In this document: positions 4,668 through 44,102 of the stretch, piece by piece
How the letters are laid out: each line of letters opens with the position of its first letter
How positions within the stretch are numbered: the first letter of the stretch is position 1
Virus record (IMG/VR): IMGVR_UViG_3300045988_155182
From: a virus
Lineage: Duplodnaviria; Heunggongvirae; Uroviricota; Caudoviricetes
Reading direction: 5' to 3' (one strand)
DNA length: 64,000 bases
Made by a program: the position numbers and the translations under genes
The notes under the pieces: generated by a model
What the model saw: only the letters and a program-made list of their open reading frames with translations
Told to the model about the DNA's origin: nothing
Databases searched by the model: none

Positions 4668-4686
4668 TAGGTAAGTATTTACTTAA
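4668..4686. promoter_or_regulatory. Dispersed palindrome copy (TAGGTAAGTA-TT-TACTTAA) between the J-like and stf genes
   Basis: TAAGTATTTACTTA core; the same core recurs at 23354-23375. Confidence 0.45.
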
Positions 4687-40290: not shown

Positions 40291-41364
40291 ATGGCAAAAG
40301 GAAAATCCGCACTGGCACTTGCTCTGAAAAAGAAAATCGGTAGCAACGACGAAATTCAGAAAGTAACTCATTGGATTGATACAGGCTTTCCACCGTTAAA
40401 CAAAGCTATTTCTGGTCGTTACGATGGCGGCTTCCCATGTGGTCGTATCGTCGAAGTATTCGGTCCTCCAAGTGCAGGGAAAACGTTCCTTGCAACAGCA
40501 GCGATGATCTCCGCTCAAAAACAAGATGGTCTGGCGGTATTCCTCGATCATGAAAACAGTTTTGACGTTGGCCTGGCTGTCGCCAATGGCCTGAACGCAG
40601 ATGAGGATGACGGTCAGTGGGTATACAAGCAGCCAGATACCTTCGAAGACTCTGTAGAGTTGATCGGCACAATACTTAAATTGGTTCGTGATGAAGAGCT
40701 TATCCCTGAATCAGCACCTATCTGTATCGTGGCTGACTCTCTTGCGTCTATGGTTCCGAACTCCAAAGCCGAGAAGTTCGAAAAGATGGCTGAAGGCACT
40801 GCCAAAGACAAAGATCAGCTAAACATGAACGACAATACGGCACTGGCTCGTGCGACGAGTGCGAACTTCCCTACTCTGGCTTTGTGGGCACGCAAATACA
40901 ACGCCTGCATCATCTTCTTGAATCAGGTTCGCACAAAAATCGGTGTAATGTTTGGCGACCCTACTACGTCGCCAGGTGGAGATTCACCGAAGTTCTACGC
41001 TTCTGTACGTATCCGTCTTGGTGCATCGGTGATGAAGGATGGTAAAGAGAAGATCGGCCAGGACGTAGGCGCAGAATGCATCAAAAACAAAGTTGCACCA
41101 CCGTATGGCAAATGCACCTGGAAATTCTACTTCGATCCTACTCGTGGCCTCGACGTTATCGAATCGCTCGTCGAGTACATGCTGGAAGAAGGATACCTGC
41201 CAAAGAACGCCAGCGGGCGAGTTGAAATTGGTGACAAGAAATACACCAAATCGCAGATCGTTGAGATGTATCGGGAGAAGCCACTGGCTGAAATCATTGC
41301 GGCTTTGCAGGCAATCGACGACCGAAGAGCAAAAGACAACCCCACCGAGTCAGTAGAAGAGTAA
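40291..41364 (+). CDS. recA: RecA-family recombinase
   Basis: Walker A GPPSAGKTF; RecA core block IIFLNQVRTKIGVMFGDPTTSPGGDSPKFYASVRIRLG closely matches bacterial RecA. Confidence 0.85.
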   Translation: MAKGKSALALALKKKIGSNDEIQKVTHWIDTGFPPLNKAISGRYDGGFPCGRIVEVFGPPSAGKTFLATAAMISAQKQDGLAVFLDHENSFDVGLAVANGLNADEDDGQWVYKQPDTFEDSVELIGTILKLVRDEELIPESAPICIVADSLASMVPNSKAEKFEKMAEGTAKDKDQLNMNDNTALARATSANFPTLALWARKYNACIIFLNQVRTKIGVMFGDPTTSPGGDSPKFYASVRIRLGASVMKDGKEKIGQDVGAECIKNKVAPPYGKCTWKFYFDPTRGLDVIESLVEYMLEEGYLPKNASGRVEIGDKKYTKSQIVEMYREKPLAEIIAALQAIDDRRAKDNPTESVEE

Positions 41365-41368
41365 ACAC

Positions 41369-41393
41369 AAGGCGTCCACAGGACGCCTTTTTT
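41369..41393 (+). terminator. Rho-independent terminator after recA
   Basis: ggcgtcc-aca-ggacgcc then tttttt. Confidence 0.8.
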
Positions 41394-41408
41394 ATCTCTT
41401 GAAAATAT

Positions 41409-41424
41409 ATAAGTACTTACTTAT
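41409..41424. promoter_or_regulatory. Perfect copy of the dispersed palindrome ATAAGTA-CT-TACTTAT
   Basis: Between the recA terminator and the next gene. Confidence 0.5.
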
Positions 41425-41456
41425 TATTTTCGCATAACAACCACATAGGAAAACAC

Positions 41457-41657
41457 ATGATCAAAATCTATCTATTGGCAGTAGCCACAGGCCTTTCAGT
41501 GGCTCTCATCTACGGTTTACTGGTTCCGTCGCTGATTTCTACCAAGAGTGATTTAGCCGTCATGTTTGGAGTTATCGTTGGTTTTGGTGCTCCTGTAATC
41601 GGTCTTATTGCTGGTCGTAAGTTTATCAACTCATTAATCAAAGCAAAGGGGAAATAA
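41457..41657 (+). CDS. Small two-TM membrane protein (NfeD-like partner of the SPFH protein?)
   Basis: 66 aa with two hydrophobic helices; 4 nt upstream of the SPFH gene. Confidence 0.5.
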   Translation: MIKIYLLAVATGLSVALIYGLLVPSLISTKSDLAVMFGVIVGFGAPVIGLIAGRKFINSLIKAKGK

Positions 41658-41660
41658 GTA

Positions 41661-42491
41661 ATGAAGAAAGGTTTACTTGCAGTTGCTCTGGCGGCTATTT
41701 GCACAATGGGTCTTACTGGCTGCGATCGCGTGGAGCCTGGATACGTTGGCATCAAAGTAAACAAATTAGGTGAAGACAAAGGGATTGGTGAAGTGGTTGG
41801 CGTTGGTCGCCAATGGACAGGTCTTAACACCGAACTTTACGTATTCCCGACCTTCAAACAAATGAAGACCTACGACGAGCCGTTCACATTCCAGATGAGT
41901 GACGGTACTGCTATTGGTCACAAAATTGGCGTTGCGTATCTGGTTAATCGTGACAAGGTAACGACGGTGTTCCAGACCTATCGCAAAGGCGTAGACGATA
42001 TCACCGAATCAGATCTGCGTCAGAAAATTGCCGACTCTCTAAACCGTTTGGCCAGCCGTATGACCACTGACTCATTTATCGACGGTGGTAAGGCACAATT
42101 GCTGGACAACGCACTGAAAGATATTCAGAAAGAGATGTCTCCGGTTGGTATTGAGGTACTGAGCCTGTCATGGGTTGGAAAGCCTGATTACCCAAAAACT
42201 GTCATTGAATCTATTAACGCCAAAGTAACGGCTAACCAGCGTACTCTGCAACGTCAGCAGGAAGTTGAACAACGTAAAGCTGAGGCGAATATGCTACGTG
42301 AACAGGCTAATGGTGAAGCTGATGCTATCCGTGCTCGTGCGCAAGCAGAAGCAGACGCCATTCGTCTGCGCGGTGAAGCTCTGCGTCAAAACCCGAACGT
42401 TATGGAACTGGAAGCCATCAATAAATGGAATGGCCAGTTACCGCAGTACATGACTCAAGGGGCTAACACTCCTTTCATTACAGTGAAATAA
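41661..42491 (+). CDS. SPFH/band-7 domain lipoprotein
   Basis: Lipoprotein signal LTGC; SPFH-like core; coiled-coil ...QEVEQRKAEANMLREQANGEADAIRARAQAEADAIR...; C-terminal INKWNGQLPQYM. Confidence 0.6.
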   Translation: MKKGLLAVALAAICTMGLTGCDRVEPGYVGIKVNKLGEDKGIGEVVGVGRQWTGLNTELYVFPTFKQMKTYDEPFTFQMSDGTAIGHKIGVAYLVNRDKVTTVFQTYRKGVDDITESDLRQKIADSLNRLASRMTTDSFIDGGKAQLLDNALKDIQKEMSPVGIEVLSLSWVGKPDYPKTVIESINAKVTANQRTLQRQQEVEQRKAEANMLREQANGEADAIRARAQAEADAIRLRGEALRQNPNVMELEAINKWNGQLPQYMTQGANTPFITVK

Positions 42492-42507: not shown

Positions 42508-42532
42508 AGGCGTCCAGTTGGACGCCTTTTTT
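42508..42532 (+). terminator. Rho-independent terminator after the SPFH gene
   Basis: aggcgtcc-agtt-ggacgcct then ttttt; same stem as the terminators at 39033 and 41369. Confidence 0.8.
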
Positions 42533-42582
42533 ATCGCAATTATCTTATTAAGAAAACAATTTGTTTAAAGGGTTAAGAAAAT

Positions 42583-43008
42583 ATGACAGCTATTAAGAAA
42601 CTCTACGATGCCGCAAACGCGGCTCTGGATGTTATTGATGATGAAGTATCAAAAGGCTTTCCTGAACCTGATTGGGCGCATCAGCTACGAAACGCTATCG
42701 CCGAAATGAATCCACCAGATCCGACCACCGAGGAGACAGACTGGCAGCGATTCATCCGTATGTACGCTCAGGAAATAGGTCCAACGCCAACGGCAGAGCA
42801 GGCAATGCTGCTGAAATACTTCAAAGAGGCGGGAGAGGATTTACCAATTGATGACTCAGCATATTGGTTCCACTGCGCATGGCGTAAGTATGACGTGATA
42901 TTCACACAAGGCATGGGAAGCAAAGATATGGTTGTGTGGCATCTACTCCATATAGACACAGCCGTTGACAGAGTTATTGAACAGTTTTTCCCTAAACAAG
43001 AAGATTGA
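42583..43008 (+). CDS. Hypothetical protein
   Basis: 141-aa ORF preceded by the AAACAATTTGTTTAAA palindrome. Confidence 0.5.
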   Translation: MTAIKKLYDAANAALDVIDDEVSKGFPEPDWAHQLRNAIAEMNPPDPTTEETDWQRFIRMYAQEIGPTPTAEQAMLLKYFKEAGEDLPIDDSAYWFHCAWRKYDVIFTQGMGSKDMVVWHLLHIDTAVDRVIEQFFPKQED

Positions 43009-43063: not shown

Positions 43064-43339
43064 ATGAGAGTTTTAGTTCGAATCGTTACCAGCACTGTCT
43101 ATGACGTGTTTCCGGTTTTTATGGTCAAAGCCGATGGCCTTAACGACGAAGAAACTGACGCGCTGATCCAGCGTATTCTCGTTGAATATACAGGTCATGA
43201 CGCTGATTCAGTGATGGTTGATGATGATGGTGTTTGTTGGCATAACGGCAACTGTTGGTACGTAGAAGAGACTCAACAAATCAGTGATGAAGATGCCGAA
43301 CATCTTGAGCGTATTTTAAGCATCAGCACTTTTGAGTGA
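43064..43339 (+). CDS. Hypothetical protein
   Basis: AAAGGAAAAACACATG start context. Confidence 0.5.
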   Translation: MRVLVRIVTSTVYDVFPVFMVKADGLNDEETDALIQRILVEYTGHDADSVMVDDDGVCWHNGNCWYVEETQQISDEDAEHLERILSISTFE

Positions 43340-43554
43340 GTTTACAGTAAAATTTATATAAGTTAGTATCTACCTATCATGAAGATTTTTATTGAATACT
43401 TGTTACTCATCGTTTCAATAGCTTTTGTCATCGACTGCATTTTCACTGGTGTCATTCGTAAAGTCTTTTCCCCGGTGCACGACGTAGTCATAAACGCTTT
43501 GGCTATCGTGCTCGTATTTAATTCAGCATTTGATGTAATCAAAGAGGTGGCAGC

Positions 43555-43890
43555 ATGAAGGCCATCCCATTCGCGCTGTTGTTCCTTTCTTCGATCGTTG
43601 TGGCCGACACCACTGTTTATCAGTGTGAAATGTCTGTAGCCGACGTTAAGAATGGCGCTCTTACCGACGTCATAAAAGCACCATATGGAGCGATGGTCGT
43701 AGACAGCGGCGACCAGTTCTATGTTGTGCGTGACGATCGAGTGTTGTCATCCCCATATCTCACAAATCGTAATGGCAAATTAACCGGCGTCGGAGAAGAC
43801 CACTTCGTATACAACAAATACAAGGGCTTCTATGGCGTTCACGCTTCTCAGCAAAGCTACCTTTTCGATGACTGCAAGGAGGTTGGATAA
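43555..43890 (+). CDS. Hypothetical secreted protein
   Basis: N-terminal signal peptide MKAIPFALLFLSSIVVA. Confidence 0.5.
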   Translation: MKAIPFALLFLSSIVVADTTVYQCEMSVADVKNGALTDVIKAPYGAMVVDSGDQFYVVRDDRVLSSPYLTNRNGKLTGVGEDHFVYNKYKGFYGVHASQQSYLFDDCKEVG

Positions 43891-44102
43891 TGGCATTAAC
43901 ACTGGCAGGTCTGGAAATCGAGAAAACAAGCGGCTACTGGCGTGCTAAGGGTTTCAAGCAGCCTGGCATTCTTGAGCGTCTGGAACGTGAAGATGGGTAT
44001 ATCGTCCACCAGCGGCGTGAATGGCGTATGTACGATCCAGAAACAGGAAAACTGACTACAAAAGCCGGAACACTTTGGGGTCTGTTGAAGAAAATACACT
44101 AA
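43890..44102 (+). CDS. Hypothetical small protein
   Basis: 70-aa ORF; start overlaps the upstream stop. Confidence 0.4.
   Translation: MALTLAGLEIEKTSGYWRAKGFKQPGILERLEREDGYIVHQRREWRMYDPETGKLTTKAGTLWGLLKKIH

Follow-up and report, generated by a model that had tools for sequence, protein, structure and literature searches.

Why would a tailed phage carry an SPFH protein, a member of the family better known from cellular membranes? The question is raised by a 64,000-nucleotide stretch of DNA from the IMG/VR virus record IMGVR_UViG_3300045988_155182 (Duplodnaviria; Heunggongvirae; Uroviricota; Caudoviricetes), which is called the window below. Between positions 41457 and 42491 on its + strand lie a small membrane-protein gene and an SPFH (Band-7) lipoprotein gene, enclosed by two terminators. 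An earlier note on the window proposed that this operon is cargo for lysogenic conversion. The favoured answer here is a different one, and it is held with about even confidence: the two genes form an autonomous cassette of the lytic programme, and their products would build an SPFH and two-helix membrane assembly on the host inner membrane. The cassette behaves as a lytic-programme gene set and not as a classic lysogenic-conversion gene.

Both open reading frames (ORFs) described in the earlier note are present on the + strand. The small gene (41457-41657) encodes a 66-residue protein with two transmembrane (TM) segments, assigned to PHROG 1130. The SPFH gene (41661-42491) encodes a 276-residue SPFH/Band-7 lipoprotein with the lipobox LTGC, assigned to PHROG 200. 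The order on the + strand is recA, a terminator, a promoter, the sequence AGGAAA, the 66-codon ORF, a gap of 3 nucleotides with AAGGGGA upstream, the 276-codon ORF and a second terminator. A purine run resembling a Shine-Dalgarno sequence thus precedes each gene.

The placement of the operon between two terminators with identical stems was also borne out. Terminator 1 (41369-41397, +) stands 3' of recA and is the upstream copy of a direct repeat; its stem (41369-41389) reads AAGGCGTCC-aca-GGACGCCTT and runs into six T. Terminator 2 (42508-42535, +) ends the cassette and is the downstream copy; its stem (42508-42527) reads AGGCGTCC-agtt-GGACGCCT, again followed by six T. The two share AGGCGTCC and GGACGCCTTTTTTATC, and differ in the loop only ("aca" upstream, "agtt" downstream). 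Compared with shuffled sequence, both fold strongly (-14.7 kcal/mol, z = -6.6, upstream; -15.1 kcal/mol, z = -5.1, downstream). The pattern GGCGTCC-N3-6-GGACGCC occurs twice in the 64 kb, with none expected, and both occurrences are the terminators of the cassette. A scan of the region against Rfam gave no family at threshold and one match below it. Directly 3' of terminator 1 lies a sigma70-like promoter (41399-41427, +; TTGAAA, a spacer of 17, TATTAT; 10 of 12 matches).

The element that carries the cassette can be identified. The region is 94-99% identical to the Escherichia phages CMS-2020a, PhiR41_1 and Cyrano, of which Cyrano is a 98%-identical relative of the window. Identity to Salmonella phage SSU5 is 78%. 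These matches make the window an SSU5-like Escherichia coli phage-plasmid and the operon phage-encoded, as had been claimed. The promoter sequence is kept in SSU5 and Cyrano, and both carry orthologues of the pair at the equivalent position (SSU5_061 and SSU5_062; CYRAN_56/57). An equivalent arrangement is found in plasmids of Yersinia pestis (about 100-137 kb) and Salmonella (about 106 kb). The GC (guanine plus cytosine) content of the cassette resembles that of its flanks. Amino acid identity between the window and SSU5 is 94% for the SPFH protein, 95% for RecA and 92% for the exonuclease, so the cassette is orthologous and has diverged as its flanks have. Recent import of the cassette from a foreign source was rejected on these two grounds. 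In this sense the instance in the window is already known as an annotated orthologue: the records of SSU5, Cyrano, P88, phiP27 and Stx2 phages label the gene "SPFH domain-containing protein", and the PHROG families exist as labels without function.

The SPFH assignment, which the earlier note had left to profile searches, is secure. The protein matches Pfam PF01145 (Band_7) over residues 23-209 with E=2.6e-30 and 106.2 bits, against a cut-off of 23.6, and PHROG 200 ("lipoprotein") with 3e-108. It begins with a signal peptide (residues 1-20) that ends in the lipobox L-T-G-C21 (MKKGLLAVALAAICTMGLTG-C21), followed by Asp. The SPFH domain spans residues 21-176, a 65-residue helix residues 179-243, and a short helix and a C-terminal tail complete the chain. 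In an AlphaFold2 model built on an alignment of 135 homologues (mean predicted local distance difference test score, pLDDT, 84.7), the first strand of the SPFH domain starts at residue 21, the predicted lipidated cysteine itself. Because of this, the domain would have no tether between it and its lipid anchor. Several phage records label homologues as "serine protease" or "transposase fusion"; these were treated as annotation artefacts, since no protease or transposase domain was found with Pfam or PHROG.

A hint of where such a lipoprotein may go in the cell comes from its N-terminus. In E. coli, Asp at position +2 after the lipidated cysteine is a signal for retention in the inner membrane. 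The lipobox cysteine is kept in at least 90% of the 135 homologues, and "DRV" directly follows it in all 14 enterobacterial homologues that retain it ("CDR" in the window). The signal would place the protein on the periplasmic face of the inner membrane.

Searches of the model with Foldseek gave full-length matches to HflC/HflK, erlin1/2, prohibitin, stomatin, flotillin and QmcA (E 3e-14 to 6e-8), the top match being HflC in the HflK/C complex. A weaker match was to major vault protein (about 2e-7). The proteins of the first group form rings or cages at membranes, and major vault protein forms the cytoplasmic vault particle. The nearest known system in structure is HflK/HflC-FtsH (PDB 7vhp, 7vhq, 7wi3, 9cz2), which shares the SPFH1/2 domains, the long coiled-coil helix, the C-terminal segment and the predicted location on the periplasmic side of the inner membrane. 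HflK and HflC form a pair and each has an N-terminal TM helix, whereas the window has a lipid anchor, a single SPFH gene and a 66-residue two-TM partner.

This likeness suggests one alternative to the favoured reading, namely that the cassette mimics HflK/C. A periplasm-facing SPFH assembly would bind or enclose host FtsH, or displace HflK/C, and so change the turnover of CII-like factors, phage membrane proteins or LpxC. The topology predicted from the lipobox and Asp at +2 is that of HflK/C (periplasmic SPFH domain, inner membrane), HflC and HflK are among its best sequence matches in NCBIfam and the PDB, the top Foldseek match is HflC, and the prohibitin/HflKC branch of the family is known to partner AAA proteases. 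By sequence, however, the match is weak. The protein scores 30.2 bits against an NCBIfam equivalog cut-off of 134.4 for HflC (TIGR01932), and 18.7 against 159.4 for HflK (TIGR01933). A profile search of the PDB places QmcA best, followed by HflK, PHB2 and HflC within two orders of magnitude; with QmcA above HflK, no specific affinity is visible. The protein also has no TM helix, and many carriers of the pair are virulent phages, which face no decision between lysis and lysogeny; evidence of contact with FtsH was not found. The mimic is thus considered unlikely. Membership in HflK/HflC itself was rejected on the scores, the non-discriminating profile search, the missing TM anchor and the single SPFH gene, and the comparison is kept as an analogy. 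By its sequence the SPFH protein is a distinct subfamily.

What is the small protein beside it? Its hydrophobic segments cover residues of about 3-27 and 33-53, separated by the short loop STKSD and followed by a basic C-terminal tail, and for these reasons it is predicted to have both termini in the cytoplasm. It matches PHROG 1130 ("membrane protein") with 2.1e-25. No Pfam match at E<=0.01, no NCBIfam match and no PADLOC match was found. The earlier note had expected an NfeD-like domain, and this expectation failed: an NfeD partner (PF01957, OB domain) was rejected for want of any Pfam or NCBIfam match and because 66 residues are too few for an OB domain.

A comparison with QmcA-YbbJ (PDB 8z5g), an SPFH-NfeD system, is nevertheless useful. 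Here too there is a two-gene operon in which a small membrane protein is encoded immediately upstream of the SPFH protein and co-transcribed with it, and QmcA is the best profile-to-PDB sequence match of the window protein. The differences lie in orientation and partner. QmcA faces the cytoplasm and has an NfeD/OB partner; the SPFH protein of the window is a predicted exported lipoprotein, and its phage-borne partner has two TM helices and no OB domain.

Because sequence searches failed to reach distant partners, these were traced by synteny. A tblastn search with the 66-residue protein found the SSU5 group only, a word-based search found only relatives at least 73% identical, and a profile search across 1.84 billion representatives gave 13 matches. 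The SPFH protein is far easier to follow. With tblastn its homologues are found in 413 phage records, among them temperate phages (SSU5, P2-like P88, P1-like phages, phiP27 and Stx2 phages) and many virulent ones (N4-like, rV5-like, FelixO1-like, LUZ24-like, T7-like and phiCbK-like). Jumbo phages and Lak megaphages have homologues as well.

Eighteen independent loci were inspected, and in 15 of them an ORF of 58-75 residues with two TM segments lies directly upstream of the SPFH gene, usually with overlapping stop and start codons. These loci are those of the window, SSU5, P88, the P1-like 813R1, phiP27, the N4-like KpCHEMY26 and Paxi, the rV5-like 4MG, the T7-like ProddE, Vibrio CKB-S1, Burkholderia vB_PR1, a prophage of the alphaproteobacterium Epibacterium and three metagenomic phage contigs. 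The lineages with a partner include a Stenotrophomonas phage. In 4MG one ORF separates the two-TM gene from the SPFH gene. The 15 partner proteins align without gaps in their core, where Pro24 is invariant and Ser28 and Gly38 are nearly so. The window has P24-x-L-I-S28...G38, and the turn common to the family reads P-x-[LM]-[IV]-S-x-x-[DS].

Two examples show how close the pairing is. In phiP27 (NC_003356; L005:2140-2500) a 62-residue two-TM ORF with the motif (…GLLVPFLISMKDT…), missed by the reference annotation, stands directly upstream of the SPFH lipoprotein L05. In a P1-like plasmid contig (P0021) partner and lipoprotein are joined in a natural read-through fusion of 347 residues, with 8 member sequences. 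A second joined protein is of another kind: on a 9.7-kb contig (P0018), a deletion has produced a chimera in which SPFH residues 1-226 run into the C-terminal part of DUF7238, the protein encoded downstream.

Judged by homology and synteny, the pair is a pan-phage module of unrelated tailed phages of Proteobacteria. Its neighbours are almost always genes of replication, recombination or nucleotide metabolism (polymerase, helicase, RecA, exonuclease, dUTPase), and in P88, phiP27 and virulent phages it lies within early operons. Among 5,426 complete E. coli genomes 760 (14%) have a homologue of the SPFH gene, about half of them on the chromosome and half on plasmids, and the full SSU5-type cassette is found in 195 of the 760. 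A full-text search of the published literature did not find the pairing or the partner motif described. It also found no functional study of the phage SPFH lipoprotein; an apparent mention of "prohibitin" in connection with CRISPRi-ART was the word "prohibiting". What is new is an SPFH operon with a lipid anchor, a predicted periplasmic orientation and a minimal partner unrelated to NfeD, spread over many phages.

The format of the partner invites a second alternative, a device for timing lysis. Class II holins are small two-TM proteins with both termini in the cytoplasm, and SPFH cages sequester membrane proteins. The small protein, with its 66 residues, two TM segments, predicted N-in/C-in topology and charged C-terminus, could be a class II holin or an antiholin-like peptide whose membrane lesions are timed by the SPFH cage. 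The loci inspected speak against it, since lysis genes stand beside the pair in none of the 18. A canonical holin-endolysin-Rz/Rz1 cassette sits elsewhere in the genome (CYRAN_22-25 in the 98% relative Cyrano), and conservation is concentrated in the periplasmic turn and not on a TM face, as would be expected for a holin. A role in lysis timing is consequently regarded as very improbable.

The cassette is not always present. Since its terminators are direct repeats, it can be excised precisely by recombination between them, and several relatives appear to have lost it in this way. Plasmid A of E. coli D4, 98.7% identical overall, lacks exactly 1139 bp, which is the period of the repeat, and has a single hybrid terminator in which the downstream flank follows the upstream flank and the loop "aca". 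Plasmid A of E. coli D9 is another single-terminator variant (NZ_CP010144/CP010153 for D4 and D9). One terminator is also found in an Enterobacter relative of the SSU5 lineage, here with the upstream flank and the downstream loop "actt". In Klebsiella relatives the single terminator joins an upstream-type loop "att" to the downstream flank. The crossover points differ, and therefore argue for independent losses of the cassette by recombination between the repeats; the reverse direction, insertion of the cassette at single-terminator sites, is less likely.

Among 206 complete E. coli genomes with the plasmid region the site is empty in 8, all with an identical junction, so the cassette is usually retained in this species. 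For most Klebsiella relatives, the match in a plasmid search is confined to the recA portion of the query, and two that were examined by sequence or annotation have no cassette. Judging by these natural, precise deletions in otherwise intact relatives, the cassette appears to be dispensable.

The small gene shows variation of a different kind. The SPFH gene and the four genes after it match their Cyrano counterparts at 100% DNA identity. Upstream of them lies a mosaic patch (41270-41657) of about 390 bp that is only about 78% identical to Cyrano, with DNA of 98-100% identity on both sides. Within the patch lie the last ~90 nucleotides of recA, the terminator and promoter, and the small gene, whose stop codon is exactly where the patch ends and whose protein is 73% identical. 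E. coli harbours two alleles of the small protein as well as recombinants of the two. Among the codon differences, 16 are synonymous and 18 non-synonymous, which indicates a relaxation of purifying selection rather than positive selection.

When is the cassette expressed? A first indication comes from a perfect 16-bp palindrome, ATAAGTA-CT-TACTTAT (41409-41424), which lies across the spacer and the -10 element of the promoter. Allowing up to 3 mismatches, this 16-mer occurs 12 times in the window, where 0.3 occurrences are expected. The palindromic pattern ATAAGTA-NN-TACTTAT gives 28 overlapping hits (about 20 sites) compared with about 3 in shuffled sequence, and 27 of the 28 are intergenic, 30-130 nucleotides upstream of + strand operons. 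Examples are the sites at 4671, 16572, 23355, 30476 (perfect), 37885, 41409 (perfect), 47158, 51842, 56559 and 61394. The operons concerned serve structure, replication and nucleotide metabolism, and include those for the tail fibre, UvsY, SSB, SbcD and ribonucleotide reductase. Ten motif-proximal genes of Cyrano have an identifiable downstream gene, and every one of these 10 shows only background expression in lysogens grown in lysogeny broth (LB); no motif was found before the morons that Cyrano expresses in lysogeny. The palindrome looks like a regulatory element of the lytic regulon, either operator or promoter; the orthologue of CYRAN_45 is a putative repressor. Its dispersed layout is comparable to that of the scattered C1 operators of P1.

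More direct evidence comes from published RNA sequencing of strain LF82 with Cyrano (PMC9928086), where values are given as log2(fpkm+5), fpkm being fragments per kilobase of transcript per million mapped reads. After growth overnight in LB, CYRAN_56 stands at 2.32 / 2.32, which is the floor and means zero reads, and CYRAN_57 at 4.3 / 3.0. After 6 h in macrophages the two genes reach 7.6 / 7.7 and 7.25 / 7.42, while the flanking recA and CYRAN_58 are at about 4.0 each (PMC9928086). The pair is thus about 10-fold above its flanking genes in macrophages at 6 h (from PMC9928086 S1), which implies a transcription start of its own. In the 98% relative Cyrano, then, the cassette is an autonomous transcript, silent in the lysogen in LB, wired like the lytic-phase operons and conditionally switched on.

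Another unit behaves similarly in the same data. CYRAN_60-62 (window 43379-44102; proteins of 59 and 111 residues and a Cra-like protein) also rise in macrophages at 6 h, to log2 values of 8.3-9.0, and the genes in between stay low. CYRAN_60-62 and the SPFH pair may therefore be among a few units of the resident plasmid that are induced together.

These observations bear on the proposal of the earlier note, which can be put as follows. The cassette would be a moron, expressed from the resident plasmid prophage and altering the host through superinfection exclusion or another conversion trait, as cargo outside the phage programme. Part of this stands. The cassette has its own promoter and terminator, is precisely dispensable and apparently missing in most Klebsiella relatives, and elements that are otherwise identical can differ in which of two alleles of the small gene they carry. 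Its transcription in Cyrano does not follow that of its flanks, exceeding flanking lytic genes about 10-fold in macrophages, where virion production is blocked (PMC9928086). A prophage HflK/C-like protein of Pasteurella multocida has also been reported as a virulence factor (PMC9872710).

Other parts of the proposal do not hold up. The authors who studied Cyrano list 13 morons, and CYRAN_56/57 are absent from the list; the small gene, as noted, has no reads in LB (PMC9928086). The palindrome in its promoter also precedes operons for structure and replication that lysogens do not express. The pair is part of early operons in P88, phiP27 and virulent phages, and it is common in strictly virulent phages (N4-like, T7-like, rV5-like and others). 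The GC content and the orthology with SSU5 at flank-like divergence show that it is not a recent import, and neither protein matches a defence model in PADLOC. As an account of the whole, a moron expressed by the prophage is therefore rated as rather unlikely, and an autonomous lytic-programme cassette is preferred.

TLR1/2 is the usual receptor for lipoproteins. The Pasteurella protein, Pmorf0222 (PM0222), is reported to signal through TLR1/2 (PMC9872710). It resembles the lipoprotein of the window in being a prophage-borne SPFH protein, a likeness drawn from its description, and since its reported role is in inflammation of the host, it is uninformative about phage biology.

If the cassette belongs to the lytic programme, its products may work in the following way. 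The 276-residue protein would be exported and, as its lipobox implies, anchored by lipid at Cys21. Its SPFH domain would lie flat against the inner membrane on the periplasmic side, with Asp at +2 as the retention signal. Through its long helix it would probably assemble into a ring or cage, by analogy with HflK/C, prohibitin, erlin, stomatin, flotillin and QmcA. The translationally coupled 66-residue protein would be the partner embedded in the membrane, docking through its periplasmic turn. It could do what the N-terminal TM helix does in HflK/C, or the TM portion of NfeD in QmcA-YbbJ. Early in the lytic programme the two proteins would jointly enclose patches of the host inner membrane. Transcription would start from the cassette's own promoter; it would be off in the resting lysogen, and partial derepression or stress, presumably also early lytic growth, would turn it on.

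What would such an assembly act on? The SPFH proteins of unrelated enterobacterial phages are 62-79% identical to one another, which argues for a host-directed role independent of phage type. Because the SPFH protein tracks the clade of the host and not the type of phage, what it acts on is expected to be either the membrane or some component of the host.

A tentative preference goes to one effect, judged the most likely: the inner membrane of the infected cell would be insulated against further entry of DNA or against attack from the periplasm. This would follow the logic of Imm and Sp of phage T4, a two-TM inner-membrane protein and a periplasmic protein. The analogy extends to layout and timing, with early expression and occurrence in virulent phages. 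It does not extend further; Imm and Sp have no relation to the window pair in sequence or fold, they are not SPFH proteins, and their genes are not adjacent. Modulation of membrane quality control of the FtsH type is a less likely effect, and homeostasis of the membrane or of respiration under stress is doubtful to a similar degree. The broadest version of the idea is likewise speculative. It would make the pair a general early "membrane-cage" device of temperate and virulent phages, walling off patches of inner membrane and so blocking the entry of competitor genomes or blunting host suicide effectors that target membranes, with the fast-evolving small subunit setting specificity. Superinfection exclusion, or interference with defence at the membrane as the earlier note suggested, may be an effect of the pair. 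A known system of anti-phage defence or exclusion was rejected, as PADLOC-DB 2.0 gave no match.

Several points weigh against the favoured reading. Three of the 18 loci have no recognisable partner: none was found in TL and phiEa104, and phiCbK is ambiguous. Most homologues from outside Enterobacterales carry Ser at +2 ("CSK"), which by the E. coli rule would send the protein to the outer membrane. Function as a repressor operator is attributed to the palindrome from its position and distribution only. Operons with the motif are moreover not equally induced in macrophages (that for SSB stays low), and more than the palindrome is needed to account for the pattern of expression. Both proteins, and the two encoded downstream, match 0 families in PADLOC-DB 2.0. 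In the full-text search, published work on members of the family contained no experiment showing localisation, oligomerisation, partner binding or a phenotype, and a 2026 paper calls the role of the SPFH gene in phages unclear (PMC13239085).

The surroundings of the cassette are variable in their own right. Directly 5' lies recA (40291-41364, +; 357 residues; Pfam RecA 2.2e-42), which in the window has no intein. In Cyrano and many related plasmids recA is ~2340 nucleotides long and contains a LAGLIDADG intein or homing endonuclease (L001:3724-6063, L011, L012). The recA intein is thus a presence/absence polymorphism adjoining the cassette. On the 3' side, a DUF7238 gene (42583-43008) and a gene for 91 residues (43064-43339) vary among relatives. 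Klebsiella relatives have DUF7238 reduced to a truncated N-terminal remnant, and SSU5 carries an additional DUF2591 gene (L003:5533-5709). The interval from recA to cra as a whole is a variable region in SSU5-like elements.

SPFH cages are known structurally, and the wide occurrence of a phage version with a minimal partner of two helices suggests that tailed phages share some requirement at the inner membrane of their hosts. The cassette is compact and autonomous, and phage-plasmids that are otherwise nearly identical occur in nature with and without it, which makes it an unusually clean system for studying the function of SPFH cages. It also has medical reach, since it is carried by SSU5-like plasmids of Yersinia pestis and Salmonella, and within macrophages an adherent-invasive E. 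coli switches it on. If the idea of a general membrane-cage device is true, it would reveal a host-directed mechanism of exclusion or anti-defence that is built on an SPFH scaffold.

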